Shown here one piece after another: positions 24,308 to 40,830 of a stretch of DNA of 64,000 nucleotides. Position numbers and translations under genes: made by a program. The notes under the pieces are model-generated. The model was not told the origin of the DNA. It saw nothing but the letters and a program-made list of their open reading frames with translations, and searched no databases. Origin of the DNA: a virus (taxonomy: Duplodnaviria > Heunggongvirae > Uroviricota > Caudoviricetes); the IMG/VR virus record IMGVR_UViG_644736364_000008; one strand, written 5' to 3'. Numbering within the stretch: the stretch's first letter is position 1; each line of letters starts with the position of its first letter.

Positions 24308-25717
24308 TTACTCATCTACTCTGATTTTTTGTTTTTTATTATTTTGAGTTAAGACATTTATGGTAATAGATGTATACGGATGAAAGTCAGGCACTATACT
24401 TTTAACCTCTCCATTTTCAAGAAAATGATGTGCTATTGAAGGAAATAAATCAGGATCTACAGGATATTTAGCATTAGGATTATGATACATATTTAAACCT
24501 TCTGCCCATGTTTCTGTAATATCGCCTTCTTTCACTTCAAAACTAAATGCTGCTGGATATAATGCCTCTGGGTCATGATCATGGCAGTAACCACTCCTAA
24601 ATAATCTAAGGTCACTTCTTCCAAAACCAGCCAGTTTTCCCATCCGATTAAACTTCGATATAGTACCACTATTAGAACTAAGGACGGCCGAAATATTTTC
24701 AGACTCATCCAAGAAGAAAAAGCCTGAAGGAATTTCCTTTTTCTCAAATTGATGCGATATAATTTTCTTAGTTGCTAAACTGTAACATCCATCTTCAGAT
24801 TTAACATGCTCATAGCGAATACCATAAAGATACTGCCAAAGTGCACTATGGGACCAAATCATAGAGTTTGGTTCATGAAAATCAGCAATTGCGAAAATTA
24901 AAGGATTCCCCTTAACATGTTCTAGATCCCAGTATCGAGTTTTCTTTTTCAGTTTAGAATAGAGAGAACTTCCAAATTTAATCGGCATATAATTCTCTAT
25001 TTTCTCTAGCAATTCTTCCTTACTTTTAGGTTCAGATAGCATTTCAGATGATTGATTAATATCATTCCCTGTTGGATTAACCGTTACAGCTTCAATGCAA
25101 ATAGTATTACCATACTTACGTGCCACATAATCAGGGGCATTAAACTGCCTATCTAGCCAAAAGTGTTCCTCTCGTAAATATGCGAAAAGATATAACTCCC
25201 ATAGCCGGGCATCAAAACCTGTTGTCTGAAACTGCTCTATAAAATTCCCGTCGACATCCTCAAAATGATTCATCATTTCCTTGATTATCCCTGTTGCAGG
25301 CGACCAGTTCGCATATTTACCAAATAATGAAAAATGATGATGAAGTTTATCTGGTGTAACTATAGGTGTGAATAAATCCATTGCTTTATAAGTTTCATCA
25401 CCTTGTGGAAATACTTTTACGTTTAATTTAGTATGCTTCCGCATTAATTTCTTTAGTTTTGCTCGTGCAGAATTCATTTCTGAAACACTAGTAAATAGGT
25501 CAATACATCTATATCTCCCACTTAAGTCTCTTGCTAAAACAATACCGCTATAATCTTCATCGATTTGATCCAATAATAGTGCCCCTAGCAGGAACTCTCT
25601 CGGACTACAGTACCACTCAAACTCATAGCCTAAAAGTTCAGTATTTGGCATTCTGGTCCAATCAACAAAAGCATTAAACCTCTCTTTACTCATTTTTTTT
25701 ATATCAAGAAAAGACAT
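24308..25717 (-). CDS. Hypothetical cargo protein, 469 aa (no recognisable motif)
   Basis: Low-GC ORF between portal gene Q and cos; no P-loop or nuclease motif detectable by eye. Confidence 0.6.
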   Translation of the reverse strand: MSFLDIKKMSKERFNAFVDWTRMPNTELLGYEFEWYCSPREFLLGALLLDQIDEDYSGIVLARDLSGRYRCIDLFTSVSEMNSARAKLKKLMRKHTKLNVKVFPQGDETYKAMDLFTPIVTPDKLHHHFSLFGKYANWSPATGIIKEMMNHFEDVDGNFIEQFQTTGFDARLWELYLFAYLREEHFWLDRQFNAPDYVARKYGNTICIEAVTVNPTGNDINQSSEMLSEPKSKEELLEKIENYMPIKFGSSLYSKLKKKTRYWDLEHVKGNPLIFAIADFHEPNSMIWSHSALWQYLYGIRYEHVKSEDGCYSLATKKIISHQFEKKEIPSGFFFLDESENISAVLSSNSGTISKFNRMGKLAGFGRSDLRLFRSGYCHDHDPEALYPAAFSFEVKEGDITETWAEGLNMYHNPNAKYPVDPDLFPSIAHHFLENGEVKSIVPDFHPYTSITINVLTQNNKKQKIRVDE

Positions 25718-25815: not shown

Positions 25816-25834
25816 CTCGTATCCCCGCCACGCC
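25816..25834. other. Putative cos site (cohesive end)
   Basis: Reverse complement reads GGCGTGGCGGGGATACGAG, closely resembling the P2 cohesive end GGCGAGGCGGGGAAAGCAC as I recall it; located between Q side and A side as in P2. Confidence 0.5.
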
Positions 25835-26038
25835 TGCCCGCTTTATGTAGTGGTTTTCATGCACCTGCATGATCTACGCAAAAGCCCGCCAGTTCTGGCG
25901 GGCCTTAGCAAAAACGATCCTCAAACGATCATGCGATCTCATGCGGCATAGACATGCACTACAGAGCTAACGCCTCGCAAGGGCTCGTTGTTCAACCTTG
26001 CTGACGCCAGAAGCAAGTTCAGACGCCAGCAACGTTTC

Positions 26039-26272
26039 TTAATGCAGCCAGCTGTCGTCTTCCCACACCTTCTGCATAATTTTCATCACTTGTTTTCTTT
26101 CTTCGTCCAGTTGCAGTCCGGTTAGTTCCACACCGTTAGAGCTACCTTTGCGAATGCGAATTACCGTTTTGGGATACAGGGGGCGCAGATTGCGGTAAAG
26201 CTCGGATTCAAGGGCGTCCAGGGTAGACTGGCTAATCTTCTGCTCTTTATCGATCATTATTTCAATGCGCAT
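26039..26272 (-). CDS. DinI-family protein
   Basis: MRIEIMIDKEQKISQSTLDALESEL...DSWLH resembles DinI (MRIEVTIAK...); start taken at internal Met of the 101-aa ORF. Confidence 0.65.
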   Translation of the reverse strand: MRIEIMIDKEQKISQSTLDALESELYRNLRPLYPKTVIRIRKGSSNGVELTGLQLDEERKQVMKIMQKVWEDDSWLH

Positions 26273-26282
26273 AAAAGTCACC

Positions 26283-26471
26283 TCAGCTGATGACATCCAT
26301 TGAGCGGTTGTATTCGTGGGTTCTGATTTTTGCCATGAGTTCATCAGTCAATTCAGAAACCCACTGCAGAGCCAGCCCCTTCTCTTCATCACTACACTCA
26401 CTAGCCGCTACAAGCTTAAGAAAAAAATCAATGCGCTGGAGCTTCAAAGACTCCAAAAAATAGTCCTGCAT
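26283..26471 (-). CDS. Small SOS-regulated protein (62 aa), possible antirepressor
   Basis: Internal ATG preceded by AGGAGG RBS; LexA box 45 bp upstream; upstream of dinI-like gene. Confidence 0.5.
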   Translation of the reverse strand: MQDYFLESLKLQRIDFFLKLVAASECSDEEKGLALQWVSELTDELMAKIRTHEYNRSMDVIS

Positions 26472-26512
26472 CTTTCCTCCTATGACACCACACGCAATGC
26501 TGTATGCATAAC

Positions 26513-26532
26513 CACTGTTTATATTTACAGTA
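26513..26532 (-). promoter_or_regulatory. LexA (SOS) box
   Basis: CACTGTTTATATTTACAGTA matches the CTGT-N8-ACAG consensus (TACTGTATATATATACAGTA); overlaps a promoter-like AT-rich region. Confidence 0.6.
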
Positions 26533-26624
26533 TATAATAATCTTACTGATGTAAAACGATTTTTTACGTTCATCAGCCTGATATGCCTGGTATTATTAAG
26601 AGCACGAATTGTTAACCCGCGTAA

Positions 26625-26981
26625 TTAATACAGGTTCCGCCACTGATCATCTTCCTGCAAACGCTGGTTCCGATAGAAGATACGCAGGCCTGCTCCTGAC
26701 GGAATACTGCCTCCGCGAAGGAGTAAATCGACCTCTTTCTCGCTGCCATCAAATCCTCTGGACTTCAGCTCATACACGAGCTGCAGTCGCTGATGGTCTG
26801 TAATTCGCTGTTTGTAGTCTTTACGCCGTTTCGGTTTCACCAGGCGTAACCTTGCTGCCAGTTCCCGGCGCTCTTTTTTGCTCATACTGTGCAGGTAATC
26901 GTGCAACTCCTTGTCATCCATGCTGGTAATGTCCGTTCTGGGGTCCCCATCAGCTGATTTATCTTTCTCCTGTTGGTTCAA
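26625..26981 (-). CDS. 118-aa ORF, possibly the displaced C-terminal part of replication protein A
   Basis: Begins at a TTG right at the A stop; becomes in-frame with A if one copy of the 26-bp tandem repeat is removed. Confidence 0.45.
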
Positions 26982-29065
26982 ATTTTCAGCAAGGGGACAG
27001 TTATTGCCACGAGTCCAAGGGGACAGTTATTGCCACGAGTCCAAGGGGCGCAAGCGCCCTGGTCGGCTGCCGCCTCCTGAATGTCAACGGCCTTACGAAC
27101 CATTTTCCACTTCACCGCATGAGTGCAGATCTTGCCCTCTGCAATGGGTGACCAGATGCCATAAATACGAATACCGTGATCGCCATAGGCGGTCGGCTCT
27201 TCGTTGATTTCATAAGCGGTTCTGATGAGGTGATATTTGCGGGGAACCAGTACGCCGCCCTGCTTCATGATGTAGGTGGCAAAACAACCAGCATCAGCAG
27301 CGGCTAGGATGGCATCAAGGCGCGGGTTATCCAGTACCGGCGCACCTGCTTTTTTGTCCCCCTGTTGCCTTGCCGCCTGACCAGCCAGCAATCGCAGTTC
27401 ACGGTAAGCCTGACGCCCCGGAATGCCAAAGAAGCGGAATTGCTGAACACGATGCAGAGACGCCCAGGCATTAACGTATTCAGCGTTATCACGCAGGGAT
27501 TTACCCGTTTCCTTGCTGATCTCGCCAGCCAGACCACGCCCGTCAATGTTCTTACTGATGTATTTCGCGATGTAGCTTGTTGGCGTACCTTTGCGCGGGT
27601 TTATCAGCTCAGACTTAAAGCGTGGTTCCGTGTTATTACCCAGCTCCTCGCGGTCTTCACGAATGGCAAACTTACGCAACAAAGCAGTAATGGCGCGGCG
27701 ATCTTTTTTGCGCATAAAACACAACAGGTGCCAGTGAACTGTACCGTCATGATGCGGCTCAGCCACCCGCACGCCATACCAGCGTAATCCGGCTTTGTGC
27801 ATCGCCTTACGAAATGCAGCAAACATACCGACCAGATAATCACTGCTTTGTCTTACCGTCGCATTTGTCCAGGTCGGGTTGGGCCTGCCGTTATTTAGCG
27901 TGGAATGGAAACGTGACGGACAGGTGATGGTGTAGAAAACGGCGCAGTCACCGCGCATTTCCGCGATAAGCTCCAGACCTTTAACACAGGCCATCATCTC
28001 ATTGCGGCGATGCGCAGGGTTGCTGCTGCTGGCGTTTACCACGTCTTCCATATCCAGCGTGTCGCCGTCTTCGTTCACCAGTTCATGAGAACGGAAAAAC
28101 TCCAGCGACTTACGGCGCTGCTCACGTTTATGCATCACGGCTTCATAGCTGACATAGGGAGATGCTTTTTTGCTGACCAGGCAAACAGCACGCAACTGCT
28201 CTTCCCGCCATTCGCAACGCATCTTCCATAATTTCCGATACCACCAGTCGGCGCATAACATACGCGCCAGCGAACCCGGAATGAGTTCATAAGGCACGGG
28301 TTTACGGCGGTTTCTTTTCCGACGGAGTTGCTCAAACGCAGGCGGGATAACATCCAGACGCAGGGTTTCCGCTGCCACCTTTTCCCATGTTTTGCGGATT
28401 TCTTCTGGCTTAATGTCATCGGTGGCATACAAATCACCACAAGCTGCATCAAGGCACATGCTCATATGCGCGGCGACAAGGGTAGACAGGCGCTTCACCT
28501 GATCCTGACTCATTTCAGGCAGGATCAGCAGGCCGTCCAGCCCTTCATGGCTTGCCATAAAGCGAAAAGAAGTGGATAGCTGACAGTCGCGTACATGCTC
28601 CAGTCGTTCCAGACATGGCTTAATCGTCTCACGCAAATAGCGGGAATAAGCCTTTGGCCTGCCCAGGCTGCTGAAGTATTCAATACGTTGCATCAGCGGC
28701 TTGCTGATATGGGAAGGCTGGGCGTTAACGTCCGCCAGAATGACCATGTCTGGATTAAAACGCTGCTGCTCATGCGCCAGCTTTGCCCGGCTAATGAGCT
28801 TATCCTGCTCCATTTCGCGTTGGACAGGATCACGGGATTCATTAAAGAAATAACGCTCCCAGGCCTGATCACTCAGTGCCTCGCGGCGCAGCTGTTCCTG
28901 CTCGTTATCGGCAGCGTACAGAGTGATCAGGTTTGAAAGCGCAGAAACCGGCGCGACTTCCGCCGGGTCCAGATAAGGGTTAATGGCCTTTTTCGGGCTG
29001 TTCCATGAGAACGCTGCGGCAGCCTCGTTAAAGCCGCAGCAGTTGTTCATATCGGCATGACTCAT
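26978..29065 (-). CDS. Replication initiation endonuclease A (rolling-circle, P2 gpA-like)
   Basis: 695-aa ORF containing the YIAKYISK active-site tyrosine pair. Confidence 0.85.
26991..27048. repeat. Perfect 26-bp tandem duplication (2.2 copies) at the 3' end of gene A
   Basis: AAGGGGACAGTTATTGCCACGAGTCC repeated head-to-tail, then AAGGGG. Confidence 0.85.
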
Positions 29066-32112: not shown

Positions 32113-32745
32113 ATGTTAAACATCAGAATGGGTTCCGATACGGGAGGTAAGGCAGCTATTGAGAGGCTGCTTGAGGCTTATGGATTCACAACTAAGCAGG
32201 CATTAAGCGAGCACCTGAATGTCTCAAAAAGTACTATGGCAAACAGAGTGTTACGTGACAGTTTTCCTGCTGACTGGATAATTCAGTGTGCACTAGAAAC
32301 CGGTGTTTCGTTACTTTGGTTAGCCACTGGACAGGGAAGCATGAAAGAAGGATACGAGTCTGAGAAAAGATCTCATAACGAGAACAAACAAGCAATTAAA
32401 CCGTTATCCAAACTCATAACTCCATCTATTCCTAAAGGAACCTTGGAAAATGGACAACTCAGTATTGATGAAGAGATTTTCCTAGACCACAGCATATTAC
32501 CTGCAGATTATGAAGAATCGATGTTCTTAGAAACCCCTACTGATTGTTATCTCATCGATAAATCAGTTAAACAAGTCAGCAATGGATTCTGGCTTATCAA
32601 TATTGATGGAATGATTATTATTGCAAAAATCATGCGGATTCCCGGCAATAAGATTGTAGTAAATCAAGATGAAGCGTCTTTCGAGTGCTCTGCCGATGAT
32701 GTGGAAGTTATTGGGCGTGCAGTCAAAGTAATAAAGAGTATCTAA
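32113..32745 (+). CDS. cI: CI immunity repressor (186 type)
   Basis: 210-aa ORF with N-terminal HTH-like region, upstream of int. Confidence 0.75.
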   Translation: MLNIRMGSDTGGKAAIERLLEAYGFTTKQALSEHLNVSKSTMANRVLRDSFPADWIIQCALETGVSLLWLATGQGSMKEGYESEKRSHNENKQAIKPLSKLITPSIPKGTLENGQLSIDEEIFLDHSILPADYEESMFLETPTDCYLIDKSVKQVSNGFWLINIDGMIIIAKIMRIPGNKIVVNQDEASFECSADDVEVIGRAVKVIKSI

Positions 32746-33771: not shown

Positions 33772-34995
33772 ATGCGCAACATTATCGAATTAGAACAGAT
33801 ATCGGAAGAACTAAAAAAACATGAACTATTGCAACCCCCATTCATTGCCGAGGGAAAACTAATTTCTGACTTTTCTAAGAGAGTCGAGTGCTATTTAGAA
33901 TTAATTGACTCCATTAGAAATAAATATCCTGACAACGAGATAATTAAACAAGTAAAGATTCGCACAAAATCAATAATATATTTATCTGATAAAATAATAG
34001 AAACTCTTAAGCTATTTTTAATAGGAAATGTTAAAGAAGCTTATAAAAAATTCGATTTGGCAATTACCAAGTCATCAATGCATACTCATCTTTATAAGAT
34101 GACTGTTCCTCTAACTAAATTATGCAACCCACACACCCCTTTATTTCGCGTAAGGAAAAGTGAGTGCATCCTAAAACAAAGAGAAGAATTATTTCATATA
34201 CCATTTAAAAATAGACATTTAGTTAGCGCACAAAGATTTTCTGTATCCGGTCTTCCATGTTTATATCTTGGAACATCAATATTTGTATGTTGGCAAGAAA
34301 TGGGAAAACCTGACTTTGATAAACTTTACATATCTTCCTTCATATCCGATAAAGAAAATTCAAATATAAGAATTTTAGATCTTGGGTACAATTTAACATC
34401 TGCACTTCGTACAAAACCGGGAGATCTTTGGTATTCATTCGAACAAGGTTCAGATGATGATTACGATCTAAATAATGATAATTTCATGGATCAAATTAAT
34501 GATAAAATTTCAAAGTTGATTGCATGGCCTTTAGTCCTTGCATGTAACTATACAAAAGATAATGAAAACGCAAGTTTTAATAAAGAATACATAATACCAA
34601 ACCTATTAATGCAATGGATTAGTAGTGACAGAAACAAAAATATATCAGGGATATCGTATCGATCAACAAAGATATTAAACCAAAAAGATAGCGATATTGG
34701 GATTAATGTAATTATCCCCCCAAAAATAGAAAACATAGTTGAAACCAATGATACCCACTGTCCTGTTTTAAAAAAAATATTTAGAGTTACAAACCCTGTT
34801 TCCTGGACTGTGTTTAGTACACTAGAAGCCACCCCCTATCTATACAAAAATAATTTTAATTTTTCGACCTATAATCCCGCAAAAGGATGGATTGAAGACT
34901 TTGATGAATCCCTTGTTGAACATTATGAAAATACCACTTTTAGAAAAGTTGAACTCCTTATTCATCAAATGATGAAGTATGAATATTTAAAATAA
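33772..34995 (+). CDS. RES-domain protein (407 aa), candidate NAD+-targeting toxin/abortive-infection effector
   Basis: LFRVRK...AQRFSVSGLPCLYLGTSIFVCWQE...IRILDLGYNLTS parallels RES toxin motifs (YRY...GGRWNPP..FPAIYLADS...E...LAVLDLT in MbcT); low-GC; 4 bp after int stop. Confidence 0.6.
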   Translation: MRNIIELEQISEELKKHELLQPPFIAEGKLISDFSKRVECYLELIDSIRNKYPDNEIIKQVKIRTKSIIYLSDKIIETLKLFLIGNVKEAYKKFDLAITKSSMHTHLYKMTVPLTKLCNPHTPLFRVRKSECILKQREELFHIPFKNRHLVSAQRFSVSGLPCLYLGTSIFVCWQEMGKPDFDKLYISSFISDKENSNIRILDLGYNLTSALRTKPGDLWYSFEQGSDDDYDLNNDNFMDQINDKISKLIAWPLVLACNYTKDNENASFNKEYIIPNLLMQWISSDRNKNISGISYRSTKILNQKDSDIGINVIIPPKIENIVETNDTHCPVLKKIFRVTNPVSWTVFSTLEATPYLYKNNFNFSTYNPAKGWIEDFDESLVEHYENTTFRKVELLIHQMMKYEYLK

Positions 34996-35735: not shown

Positions 35736-36524
35736 ATGACAAATCTACAACTGGAAGAAAGATTTAGGGCGCTTGAGAAAGATTACGATGCGCTCATTTC
35801 CACAAAATATACTGCGCAGAACGTTCTCACTCACACTATGGAAACCTATGTTGATTCTGGTAAATATAAAAACTGGATCGCCAGAGTGAAAAAGTTAATA
35901 GAGGACAGCTACGGAAAAGAGTCTGATTATTACAATGACTTCAATACTGTAAACAGCAGGTGGTCTTCTAATTACAATACACTGATCAAAAGTTATAAAC
36001 CGTTGTTTGATGCGGCGAGAGATGATCTTGCGCACTCTGCTGTCAGTACTAATACTCCTCAAGAAGGTTCGCCGCTGAGCCTCGTACTTAATATTCTTAA
36101 CAGGTTTCCGACCTTTGTTCGCCAGTTAAAGAGGCGGTACAACGGCCGTGCGCCGCTTGAAGTTAATGATGAGTATGACGTACAGGATTTGATTTATGCA
36201 CTGCTGACGCTTCATTTTAATGATATTAGGGCGGAAGAGTATACCCCCAGCTTTGCGGGCGCGGCCTCAAGACAGGACTTTCTTTTGAAAAAAGAGAAAA
36301 TTGTGATAGAGGTGAAGAAAACCCGTGAATCTCTGGGAGCGGGTAAAGTTGGTGGAGAGTTGCTTATTGATATGGCGCGCTACCGCGCTCACCAAGACTG
36401 CGATACGTTGATCTTGTTTGTATATGACCCGGATTGCTACATAAATAATCCTTTGGGCGTGAAAACCGATCTGGAATCTAAAGACGCGGAAGGAAAAGTG
36501 AAGGTTGTTATTGCGCAGTTCTGA
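35736..36524 (+). CDS. Hypothetical protein with PD-(D/E)xK-like nuclease signature
   Basis: 262 aa; GGAAGG RBS; C-terminal half has DIRAEEYTP ... KIVIEVKKT (D...E-x-K pattern); N-terminal coiled-coil. Confidence 0.5.
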   Translation: MTNLQLEERFRALEKDYDALISTKYTAQNVLTHTMETYVDSGKYKNWIARVKKLIEDSYGKESDYYNDFNTVNSRWSSNYNTLIKSYKPLFDAARDDLAHSAVSTNTPQEGSPLSLVLNILNRFPTFVRQLKRRYNGRAPLEVNDEYDVQDLIYALLTLHFNDIRAEEYTPSFAGAASRQDFLLKKEKIVIEVKKTRESLGAGKVGGELLIDMARYRAHQDCDTLILFVYDPDCYINNPLGVKTDLESKDAEGKVKVVIAQF

Positions 36525-36557
36525 CACGCTTAAGTGTCACCTTACAGGATTAGGTTT

Positions 36558-36606
36558 GCGGCCGTGCCAGCAGGACGAGCATGAAAAAGGCCGCTGGCAC
36601 GGCCGG
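36558..36606. terminator. Long hairpin between convergent genes
   Basis: 12-bp perfect inverted repeat GGCCGTGCCAGC ... GCTGGCACGGCC. Confidence 0.4.
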
Positions 36607-36611
36607 ATTTG

Positions 36612-36905
36612 TCATCTTTGCCAGGTCAAATCAAAATCTACGTGAAAATCCGCAGGCTTAAGCTCGCAACTGCCACCACGCCCAATTAACGACGTTATGT
36701 TTACAACGTTTGAACCTGTTGAGATGGCAAGTTGAGTGTCATCTGTAAACGTGATGATTAGCATTTCAGTCTGATGAACCTGTACTCCAGTTTTCTGAAA
36801 ACCAATCTGGACAGATTTCACCGTTTTCCCAACCATTTCACGGGCTTGATTGATAGAGTAATTAGCTTCAACTTGTAGGTCATTCCTGAACTTGGGTAGT
36901 GTCAT
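36612..36905 (-). CDS. Hypothetical small protein (97 aa)
   Basis: ORF downstream of, and same strand as, the GIY-YIG gene. Confidence 0.45.
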   Translation of the reverse strand: MTLPKFRNDLQVEANYSINQAREMVGKTVKSVQIGFQKTGVQVHQTEMLIITFTDDTQLAISTGSNVVNITSLIGRGGSCELKPADFHVDFDLTWQR

Positions 36906-37115
36906 TTTACATCCTCTTTAGTGAAGTTTTCGCTATTTAAATCAGCAGCATTCCTTTTAAATCACTGGCATGTCAGCAGTGGATAGTCTGAGTGTAACGT
37001 CCAGTGAGGGGAATAAATATTGGTCAGACTTTGCACAAAAGAGCCAACTATCGCGGGCTCTCTCTCATCATGTGCGAAAATTGACCACAATATGAAATCC
37101 AGTTCCATTCCGAAA

Positions 37116-37940
<825 letters not shown>

Positions 37941-38043
37941 TCAATTGACAACTTATAATCCCTACTAGTTAGCATTATGATTTCCAGAGTGAGGAATATA
38001 AAAATCTCTGTTTCTGGCACATAACAGCCCTTAAGATCGTAGC

Positions 38044-38096
38044 TCGCCATCATGGGGTGTCGGGGGGCGGAGGTTCAAATCCTCTCGTGCCGACCA
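38044..38096 (+). tRNA. Partial tRNA-Pro (3' fragment only; anticodon region to CCA)
   Basis: CATGGGGTGTCGGGGGGCGGAGGTTCAAATCCTCTCGTGCCGACCA matches the 3' part of tRNA-Pro(GGG); no complementary 5' acceptor strand (CGGCACG) upstream. Confidence 0.6.
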
Positions 38097-38110
38097 AAAA
38101 TCCCTTAAGA

Positions 38111-38137
38111 ACCAGCCTATTATGGCTGGTTTTTTTA
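38111..38137 (+). terminator. Rho-independent terminator after the tRNA fragment
   Basis: ACCAGCC-TATTAT-GGCTGGT followed by TTTTTTT. Confidence 0.55.
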
Positions 38138-38337
38138 TGATTGTTTTTTATGCGGAGAAATACCGGGGAATAATTGGGGTAAAACACCTTTAGGCTATTC
38201 ACTTAGCCTACCACCATCAAAATCTTTCCGAATGTATCCATCTCTTTTTTCTTATGCAGCTAAAACGAAGTCTTGATACTGTTTATTTACACAGATAAGA
38301 ATAATACTGTCTACAAACGCAGTACAAAAGAAGTGTT

Positions 38338-38517
38338 ATGCGTATTGAGATCTCCATAGCCAAAGACAAAATGACCAAATGCCAAACGGCGCTGTGGACG
38401 CGTTAAAGGAAGAATTAACCCAACACATTGGCAAGCGTTATGACGATGTGGAGATGATCGTAAAAGCCACCAGCAACGATAGTTTTTCAGTTAGACATAC
38501 TGCAGATAAAGATTGAG
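38338..38517 (+). pseudogene. dinI-like gene interrupted by a frameshift
   Basis: Frame 1 [16 protein letters not shown]... stops after 22 codons; a shifted frame continues ...[32 protein letters not shown], together resembling DinI. Confidence 0.45.
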
Positions 38518-38880
38518 CTAAAACTTTCGTTCAGGAAACTCTGAATGATACCTGAGAGTCTACTGAAGAGTTGTTTGTTCACTAGTTAGCACGTAGGAAA
38601 TCATTCAATACTCGCACTATCGGAAGTTCACCAGCCAGTCGTAGCACGTCCTTGCAAACGACGTGCCTACGGTTTCAATCACCTCTCACCATCAATTCTA
38701 TCAATAATAATTAAACAGCGCCTAGACAAAATAAATAACAACAAGTCAACAACCTCGACAGGATGCCGATGGGATGATGAAGAGATAAGAAAGAATAACC
38801 AGTAAAGCCCTAAAACGTCAGCGTTCAGACGCGTTTTTTACTTAATCGGTAACAAATACGTTGTATCATAGCAAAATAAA

Positions 38881-40830
38881 ATGATTGTTCTAAATCAGAT
38901 TAACTCCTCACTTTTGTACAATGTCGCTTACAGGTATACCATGAAATCCGAGACGCTAACTGTCCAACAACTTTTTCAAGACCGCCGACAATACTGTGTT
39001 CCATTCTATCAACGTGCCTATGTATGGACTCAGCAAGACCAGTGGTCAGCTCTACTGGAGGATATCCTAGAGAAAGTACAATCCCGGCTCTCGGGTACAA
39101 AACCAACTCCCCATTTCCTTGGTGCGGTTGTACTGGAACCTCAATCAAAAAAAGGATTATTAGGTGTAGATTCCATACATATTATTGATGGTCAGCAACG
39201 ATTGACCACTCTTCAATATGTTCTGGCATCCATCCGATTAGCATTACGTGCTACGGATCTTTCCAGCTTAGAGGCTCTCATTTCGCCTTGCCTGAAAAAC
39301 TCAAACGAAGACACAATGCGAAATAAAGAAGTAGAACGCTTCAAACTGTGGCCAACTTTTCGGGATCAAACTCATTTTATTCAAAGTTTTAATGTTGAAA
39401 ATATTGACGATCTCCGGGACGTATTCTCTGATAGTTTCACGCAGCATGGTACGTTGCGTAAGCATTTTAATCACCCGCCATCACTAGAAGCATTATGTTT
39501 TTTTACTGAAGCCTTTATAAAATGGATTAAAATAGAAAACCACTCACCACAAGAAAATGCTGTAGCTCTAATTGAGGCTGTCTTAACAGATCTGAAACTG
39601 GTAAGCATATTTCTCGAAGCTGAAGATGATGCCCAAATAATTTTTGAAACATTAAATGGGCGAGGGGCGGAACTTCATGCTACGGATCTTATTCGCAACT
39701 ATATCTTTATGTGCGCTGAGCATGAAAATATTAATGCTATTGAATTATATGAAAATGAGTGGAAGAGCTTTGAAGATAAATACTGGTCGGAAAAACAACG
39801 CCGTGGACGTATTAATAAACCACGCATGGAGTGGCTAGTACATGCGACATTGCAATCAGAAAGGCAACGTGAAATTGATCTGTCTCGCCTTTACAATGAG
39901 TATCGTGATTATGTAAGTAAGGACTTGTCTTCACAACGAGCAGATCTGCAAGTAAAGCGCCTCAAACAATATGCATCACAATATAAAGAATTGGTTGATG
40001 GTTTTGGCACAACCCCCATCTCACACTTTGGATATCGCATCGCAGACTATGATGTGACGACACTTTATCCGCTTGCTTTGTTCATTTCGATAGCTAACAT
40101 CGCTGATGATGAGAAAGCAGCCATGTATAATGATCTTGTCTCCTACGTAGTACGAAGAGCCGTATGTGGCCTGACGCCAAAGAATTACAACAATGTATTT
40201 ATGAATGTATTGCGGCACTTGGCTAAAACGGAAATTTCCAGTGTTGAGTTACGTAATATCCTCAATAACTTAAATGGCGAAGCCTCACGTTGGCCTGGTG
40301 ACTCAGAATTTCTCAACGCTTGCATCAATGCTCCACTTTATCCTGGCAGGCTCGACGCACCGAAAATGCGCTCAATGTTAACGGAACTTGAAAGAGAACT
40401 TTGTCGCCAAGTAAAGACAGAAAAGCCTGATGTTCCAAATCTTTCTAATCTCGATATCGATCATCTTATGCCTCAAAGTTGGTATTCCTGTTGGCCTCTC
40501 GAAAATGGTCGTATGGTGACAAATTCAGATGCTACGGTATTGAACCAAATTGTTCTGTCTGGAACCGATCTTACCCCTGAACAGCTACTGGTAAGGAAAC
40601 GGCAACAAGCGATATCTACTTTGGGAAATCTAACTTTGCTTAACCTTAGCGTAAACCGTTCTGTTCAGAATGCTGTATTTCTGAAAAAACGTGATGCTCT
40701 CATCGTCCACACCAATCTACGACTGAACATTCCACTTATAGTTAAGGATAAATGGGATGAGGATGAAATCCTGGAGCGGGGTAAAAAGTTGGGGGAAATT
40801 GCATTGAAAGTATGGCCAAAACACGATTAA
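38881..40830 (+). CDS. GmrSD-family type IV restriction endonuclease (DUF262 + DUF1524/HNH-like)
   Basis: N-terminal IIDGQQRLTTLQY (DGQQR motif) and C-terminal DIDHLMPQSW ... GNLTLLNLSVNRSVQN His-Me finger motifs; alternative start at 38941. Confidence 0.75.
   Translation: MIVLNQINSSLLYNVAYRYTMKSETLTVQQLFQDRRQYCVPFYQRAYVWTQQDQWSALLEDILEKVQSRLSGTKPTPHFLGAVVLEPQSKKGLLGVDSIHIIDGQQRLTTLQYVLASIRLALRATDLSSLEALISPCLKNSNEDTMRNKEVERFKLWPTFRDQTHFIQSFNVENIDDLRDVFSDSFTQHGTLRKHFNHPPSLEALCFFTEAFIKWIKIENHSPQENAVALIEAVLTDLKLVSIFLEAEDDAQIIFETLNGRGAELHATDLIRNYIFMCAEHENINAIELYENEWKSFEDKYWSEKQRRGRINKPRMEWLVHATLQSERQREIDLSRLYNEYRDYVSKDLSSQRADLQVKRLKQYASQYKELVDGFGTTPISHFGYRIADYDVTTLYPLALFISIANIADDEKAAMYNDLVSYVVRRAVCGLTPKNYNNVFMNVLRHLAKTEISSVELRNILNNLNGEASRWPGDSEFLNACINAPLYPGRLDAPKMRSMLTELERELCRQVKTEKPDVPNLSNLDIDHLMPQSWYSCWPLENGRMVTNSDATVLNQIVLSGTDLTPEQLLVRKRQQAISTLGNLTLLNLSVNRSVQNAVFLKKRDALIVHTNLRLNIPLIVKDKWDEDEILERGKKLGEIALKVWPKHD

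Follow-up and report, generated by a model that had tools for sequence, protein, structure and literature searches.

SOS induction of phage 186 requires Tum, which binds the CI repressor reversibly and prevents it from binding its operators (186 record; PMC7708051). In the 186 record, full-length Tum is described as a protein that 'inhibits CI DNA binding', and the DinI-only product of an internal start as one that 'modulates SOS induction'. The same record gives TACTGT as the -10 hexamer of promoter p95, and this is also the first hexamer of its putative LexA site. In the PSP3 record two genes are annotated, a tumA that is 'similar to 5' end 186 tum; UV induction of prophage' and a tumB that is 'similar to dinI and 3' end of 186 tum'. 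According to Lemire et al. 2011 (PMC3121763), tum is split in two by a stop codon in Fels-2 and PSP3, and the antirepressor activity in PSP3 belongs to the upstream gene, for which they cite the work of Bunny, Liu and Roth 2002 as well as a personal communication from G. Christie. The title of the former attributes the lethality of a lexA-null mutation in Salmonella to the Fels-2 prophage. The split tumA/tumB arrangement is thus already known from the annotation of PSP3 and the description of Fels-2.

The window analyzed here, a stretch of 64 kb, contains a locus that is approximately 97% identical at the DNA level to Fels-2 and 99.5% identical to the E. coli phage vB_EcoM-813R9. We read it, with a probability of about 85%, as the module for SOS induction of a prophage of the Fels-2/186 type (Peduoviridae), in the split tumA-tumB form, in which LexA would control TumA and TumA would act on CI. 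All features of the operon are located on the minus strand. The gene for gpA (Pfam Phage_GPA, 4e-128) lies upstream of tumA on the same strand, and the locus is situated between gene A and cos.

A near-consensus LexA box had been reported in the initial annotation, and motif scoring bears this out. The box, TACTGTAAATATAAACAGTG at 26532..26513 on the minus strand (CACTGTTTATATTTACAGTA when read on the plus strand), matches the 20-mer consensus TACTGTATATATATACAGTA at 17 of 20 positions, with three mismatches and an intact CTGT-N8-ACAG core. The palindromic LexA core and the AT-rich spacer of a gammaproteobacterial LexA box are both found in CTGTAAATATAAACAG, which has TA/TG flanks. No other site in the 64-kb window lies within three mismatches of the consensus, and none of 100 dinucleotide-preserving shuffles gave a site at this threshold. 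The bare CTGT-N8-ACAG core is not significant on its own in the 64-kb window (two found, 0.82 expected). In a comparison that covered nine loci, a LexA box is present upstream of tumA or tum in all nine, including those with diverged flanks, and its retention despite the divergence of the flanks is a phylogenetic footprint. Binding of LexA at 26532..26513 is predicted from these features.

The first six nucleotides of the box, TACTGT (26532..26527), form a putative -10 hexamer. They are preceded, across a 17-nt spacer, by a putative -35 hexamer, TTTACA (26555..26550, minus), which matches TTGACA at five of six positions. This SOS promoter would be the equivalent of 186 p95; the hexamers are weak, and the assignment follows from likeness to p95. 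A strict consensus scanner called no sigma-70 promoter at the operon. Approximately 10 nt 3' of the LexA box, all Fels-2-type loci carry a conserved TACAG(T/C) (26494-26503 minus in the window; also L002, L003, and L015-L017), as in the SopEPhi stretch TATATACAGTA. This could represent an additional LexA half-site or belong to the region where the transcript starts.

The distance from the box to the ATG of tumA is 41 nt, near the initial estimate of about 45 bp. The tumA gene (26471..26283 minus, stop codon 26285..26283 included) encodes a protein of 62 residues, and its ATG at 26471 is preceded at a distance of 4 nt by the Shine-Dalgarno sequence AGGAGG (26481..26476), which is also kept in the four diverged Fels-2-type loci that were checked. 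The tumB gene (26272..26039 minus, stop codon 26041..26039 included) encodes a DinI-family protein of 77 residues. Its ATG at 26272 lies 10 nt past the tumA stop, and its own Shine-Dalgarno sequence, GAGGTG (26284..26279), overlaps the tumA stop codon. The AGGAGG-preceded 62-aa reading frame and the DinI-family gene 10 bp further on are thus as originally described. A weak hairpin, GTCATCAGCTGAGGTGAC, followed by TTTTATG (26294..26277 minus) extends over the stop codon of tumA and the Shine-Dalgarno sequence of tumB. Translation of tumB could be coupled or limited by it, or the hairpin could be due to chance.

The 62-aa protein matches phrog_698 (E 3.6e-38) and is 98% identical to STM2728 of Fels-2 and 100% identical to its counterpart in vB_EcoM-813R9. 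Searches of Pfam and PADLOC and a sequence search of the PDB gave no match. Pairwise BLASTP of the protein against 186 Tum and PSP3 TumA also found nothing, and the link is visible to profile methods only. A profile of the TumA family, built from an alignment of 28 diverse members, aligns with 186 Tum from N terminus to N terminus, residues 3-44 to residues 3-44 (hhalign 94.9%, E 4.5e-8). The first 70 residues of 186 Tum match phrog_698 in register (E 5.9e-6), and both the window TumA and the N-terminal half of 186 Tum match phrog_8554. The window TumA furthermore matches phrog_1993, the family of PSP3 TumA (E 0.0022), and the family profile has a weak link to PSP3 TumA itself (E 0.0039, probability 8.6%). 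The core shared by TumA and Tum consists of a helix, a turn with a conserved Cys, and a second helix with the motif (L/I)A(L/I)xW/L.

The AF2 model of TumA is a two-helix hairpin with a pLDDT of 88.5; a Foldseek search of the PDB with this model yielded nothing but generic helical hairpins, with no match at E <= 0.001. A phmmer search of 1.84 billion representatives with the single sequence as the query reached stand-alone TumA-like proteins and no fused Tum. Judged by the profile matches, the 62-aa protein and the N-terminal half of 186 Tum, which is its non-DinI part, are homologous, and we infer from this homology an antirepressor activity for TumA of the Fels-2 type, in agreement with the minimal antirepressor suggested initially. 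In some database entries (P0018; MK416009, MK422454), the 62-aa protein is named 'levan regulatory (domain) protein', and in nearly all others 'hypothetical protein'. The 'levan regulatory' name appears to be a propagated misannotation.

TumB matches the Pfam family DinI (PF06183) over profile positions 1-63 of 63 with a score of 81.3 bits (cut-off 24.2, E 6.6e-23). The protein is 41% identical to residues 71-145 of 186 Tum, 100% identical to STM2726.1 of Fels-2 and to the vB_EcoM-813R9 protein, and 78% identical to PSP3 TumB. The match to E. coli DinI (1GHH) extends over the full length, residues 1-75 to residues 1-77 (E 2.7e-6). These similarities suggest that TumB would bind RecA filaments and modulate their co-protease function, and the homology to the C-terminal half of Tum and to E. 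coli DinI accords with the RecA-modulating role first proposed for it. The 146 residues of 186 Tum thus correspond to the 62-aa protein and the DinI-like protein fused, which explains why the former is shorter than Tum.

An intrinsic-terminator-like hairpin, AAGGCCCGCCAGAACTGGCGGGCTTTT at 25906..25880 on the minus strand, is predicted by RNA folding and would end the operon. It has an 11-bp GC-rich stem followed by UUUU, and the segment 25925..25860 folds at -28.8 kcal/mol (z -3.2), a stability reached by none of 200 shuffles. A pattern scanner did not call the hairpin at 25906..25880, probably because pairing in the stem can continue into the T run. The cos cohesive end, ggcgtggcggggatacgag (19 nt), is located at approximately 25834..25816 on the minus strand and matches the joined right and left ends of 186; the 186 end junction, cataaagYgggca followed by ggcgtggcgggga, is reproduced at 25847..25822 minus. 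The site lies about 200 bp past the tumB stop, so that the operon is indeed next to cos. With gene A upstream, cos downstream, and the box placed as in p95, this is the cos-proximal SOS operon of a 186-like phage that the initial annotation had proposed.

Gene A contains a perfect 26-bp tandem duplication, two copies of CCCCTTGGACTCGTGGCAATAACTGT at 26997-27048 on the minus strand, which is present in neither Fels-2 nor vB_EcoM-813R9. The duplication shifts the reading frame, so that gpA ends at 695 residues (stop at 26978) and its C-terminal extension becomes a separate 118-aa open reading frame at 26981..26625. The A protein of 186 is naturally about 694 residues long. The shortened gpA may still be functional, or the prophage could be replication-defective, and because of the frameshift induction may not give viable phage even with a working switch.

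Between cos and the portal gene Q, a gene of 469 codons (24308-25717 minus) encodes a PD-T7-1 anti-phage defense protein (PADLOC E 1.3e-196; phrog_8571). Relatives carry other cargo at this position, namely open reading frames of 243 and 565 residues in Fels-2 and a Hypoth_Ymh-domain protein in 813R9. At the att-proximal end of the prophage, a 407-aa open reading frame (33772-34995 plus) begins 5 bp past the stop codon of the integrase gene; it is cargo for which Pfam and PADLOC gave no match. The region beyond the integrase, 35736-40830, looks like a restriction/defense island, with genes for a DpnII/MboI-like REase domain protein (35736-36524 plus), a GIY-YIG protein (37116-37922 minus), and a GmrSD type IV restriction enzyme (38881-40830 plus). 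At 38277-38520 on the plus strand, a second LexA-type box, TACTGTTTATTTACACAGAT, with five mismatches and a weaker box just after it, is found about 45 bp upstream of a DinI-like open reading frame. This frame, at 38.3 kb, is frameshifted after about 14 codons and is without the C-terminal helix; it thus represents a dinI-like, SOS-regulated gene that has decayed and lies outside the prophage. A scan of the prophage revealed no further LexA-boxed gene, and the sole other box of the window is the one outside the prophage.

An immunity region of the 186 style, further along the prophage, contains a CII-like gene (Pfam Phage_CP76), a divergent CI gene, the integrase gene, and, in the apl position, an 80-aa open reading frame with no Pfam match. 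The CI immunity repressor (32113..32745 plus; 210 residues) is the candidate target of TumA. It consists of a Phage_CI_repr helix-turn-helix domain (residues 14-78) and a Phage_CI_C domain (residues 106-204), and the Pfam search found no S24/LexA-like peptidase domain in it. Without a cleavage domain, CI therefore cannot support induction of the lambda type, by repressor self-cleavage, and an antirepressor is needed. The repressors of the window, Fels-2, and 186 have a single N-terminal helix-turn-helix domain, unlike that of PSP3. Two tandem N-terminal copies are encoded by the cI genes of PSP3 (L013:1719-2579) and Klebsiella phage ST258-KPC3phi16.2 (L010:145-1023), whose products are about 290 residues long.

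The 62-aa protein might have another role in the SOS response, as an inhibitor of host division or replication or as an exclusion factor, with induction depending on something else. Such a role could be reconciled with a protein that has no Pfam family and a generic fold, and the near-invariance of TumA while CI varies between 40 and 96% overall would be unusual for an immunity-specific factor. However, the in-register homology is to the N-terminal half of Tum, which is present in the full-length protein and absent from the DinI-only truncation. CI is without a self-cleavage domain, so that an antirepressor is needed, and the prophage has no other LexA-boxed gene. The argument from invariance depends on which part of CI is compared with TumA.

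Phages with CI proteins only 40-60% identical overall to that of the window have TumA proteins that are 98-100% identical. Among six carriers of the window-type TumA, the mean pairwise identity of CI is 72% in the N-terminal domain versus 35% in the C-terminal domain. The N-terminal domains of the five other carriers are 68-81% identical to that of the window, and those of 186 and PSP3 are 39 and 48% identical; the corresponding values for the C-terminal domain are 27-59% for the carriers, 30% for 186, and 32% for PSP3. A domain-wise tblastn search with each of the two CI domains was also performed against the phage collection. Among the matches listed, every record with an N-terminal domain at least 68% identical to that of the window has a TumA that is at least 84% identical, and no record with an N-terminal domain at or below 53% has a TumA at or above 80%. 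The ESSI2 group, with N-terminal domain identities of 50-63%, includes one record with a TumA value, ESSI2_ev015, at about 49%, and the 43-48% found by tblastn for the N-terminal domains of 186 and PSP3 goes with a TumA identity of about 21%. For the C-terminal domain, identities among TumA carriers run from 97% down to 27% and overlap those of the non-carriers Midge (37%), PSP3 (34%), and 186 (30%).

The type of TumA thus co-varies with the N-terminal DNA-binding domain of CI and not with its C-terminal domain. The apparent decoupling of TumA and CI disappears when the N-terminal domain of CI is taken by itself, and another SOS role for the 62-aa protein is unlikely.

The co-variation also hints at a binding interface. 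TumA may contact the N-terminal helix-turn-helix domain of CI, which would fit the wording 'inhibits CI DNA binding' of the 186 record; the relationship is a correlation, with shared ancestry and the slower evolution of DNA-binding domains as confounders. Our tentative proposal, to which we give slightly less than even odds, is that the near-invariant TumA of E. coli, Klebsiella, and Salmonella prophages (98-100% identity) recognizes the N-terminal domain rather than the C-terminal oligomerization domain. In the accessible literature on Tum-type antirepressors, we did not find it stated which CI domain is bound. If the proposal is true, one antirepressor would serve many CI variants with C-terminal domains approximately 27-60% identical, and TumA could also act on other P2-like prophages in the same cell, inducing those with an N-terminal domain of the same class.

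For the split tumA-tumB module as a whole, the following sequence of events is proposed. In an undamaged lysogen, LexA bound to the box over the -10 hexamer would keep the operon off. After DNA damage, activated RecA would promote the self-cleavage of LexA, and the promoter would fire, giving a short transcript that would end at the hairpin before cos and yield two small proteins. TumA would bind the non-cleavable CI, presumably at its N-terminal helix-turn-helix domain, and block its binding to DNA, so that the early lytic promoter pR would be freed. TumB would act on RecA filaments and tune how strong the SOS signal is or how long it lasts, as an accessory and not as the inducer. The anatomy of the locus, the homologies of both proteins, the conservation of the box, and the lack of a cleavage domain in CI were obtained in this analysis, and the literature is the source for what Tum does in 186 and tumA in PSP3. 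Occupancy of the box by LexA, the TumA-CI interaction, and the CI domain involved in it are what we infer.

DinI proteins act directly on RecA filaments. TumB, which is 100% conserved with Fels-2, might accordingly be the real inducer, working through RecA with TumA as the accessory. Against this, the truncated, DinI-only form of 186 Tum is described only as one that 'modulates' induction (186 record), and non-polar deletions of dinI in the Gifsy phages left induction unchanged (Lemire 2011, PMC3121763). CI, moreover, has no RecA-stimulated cleavage domain on which RecA could act. In ESSI2_ev015, a LexA-boxed tumA-like gene (L014:601-813; 70 residues, 49% identical) occurs without a DinI gene; it is directly followed by an opposite-strand regulator and then by the portal gene. 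The antirepressor module can therefore stand alone, and it is very unlikely that TumB is the inducer.

The relative position of the two genes differs between phages. The frame offset from tumA to tumB is 1 in the window, Fels-2, and 813R9, 0 in PSP3 and Yersinia MLG42, and 2 in SopEPhi and Klebsiella phi4.1, with spacers of 3-12 nt and a separate Shine-Dalgarno sequence for each tumB. A length of about 62 residues is usual throughout the diverse TumA family. Of 5426 complete E. coli genomes, 1124 carry the operon, which is annotated there only as 'hypothetical protein' and 'DinI-like family protein', and the split arrangement also occurs in Klebsiella, Salmonella, and Yersinia phages that were isolated as viable phages. 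We conclude that tumA and tumB are truly separate genes. That the 62-aa reading frame is instead a functionless remnant of a broken, pseudogenized fused tum, as might be suggested by the single 146-aa reading frame that spans both halves in 186, by the window DinI frame being open upstream into the 62-aa gene (as a 101-aa open reading frame), and by the wording 'split by a stop codon' (PMC3121763), is rejected as very unlikely on the basis of this variation in frame offset and this conservation. In 186 itself, moreover, an internal start already gives a separate DinI product (186 record).

In the split tumA-tumB module, the window thus carries the standard SOS switch of Fels-2/186-type prophages, found in about a fifth of complete E. 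coli genomes, and it is of little importance as a discovery. On the strength of the profile link to Tum, phrog_698 proteins could justifiably be annotated as TumA-type antirepressors. A modest addition is the co-variation with the N-terminal domain of CI, which provides a testable guess at the binding interface and raises the possibility of cross-induction between co-resident P2-like prophages.

Among known systems, the split tum locus of the Fels-2 prophage of Salmonella LT2 is practically the same as that of the window. Its genes STM2728 and STM2726.1 lie between gpA and cos, as in the window, and have an identical LexA box, the same 41-nt spacing and 10-nt gap, and the same +1 offset. Fels-2 differs in having two more genes (243 and 565 residues) between tumB and the portal gene; in the window, unlike in Fels-2, tumB is followed by the terminator, cos, and the PD-T7-1 defense gene. 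The CI of Fels-2 is 60% identical to that of the window overall, with 73% in the N-terminal and 59% in the C-terminal domain. PSP3 also carries tumA and tumB behind a LexA box at the same position in the genome. Its TumA, however, is of a different type (phrog_1993 versus phrog_698 for the window, with an identity of about 21-22%), its two genes share one frame with the stop and one codon between them, the box is 20 nt from the start, and its CI has a duplicated N-terminal domain, unlike that of the window.

The p95 operon of 186 resembles the window in the LexA box over the -10 hexamer and in being the rightmost transcription unit before cos, and the 186 CI belongs to the same two-domain, non-cleavable family. 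In 186, Tum is a single reading frame with nested internal starts, whereas the window has two genes, and the orf97 that the 186 operon carries downstream has no homologue in the window. The Gifsy loci likewise combine, in a LexA-boxed operon, a small antirepressor and a DinI homologue against a non-cleavable repressor (PMC3121763), but in the reverse order, with the dinI homologue followed by the gfoA/gftA antirepressor and then irsA, and the Gifsy phages are lambdoid phages with another repressor family. Compared with E. coli DinI (1GHH), TumB retains both the initial MRIE and the W-E-x-x-D-x-W motif at the C terminus, and both are under LexA control, which for TumB is predicted. TumB differs in being phage-borne, in sharing its transcript with an antirepressor, and in having diverged in sequence.
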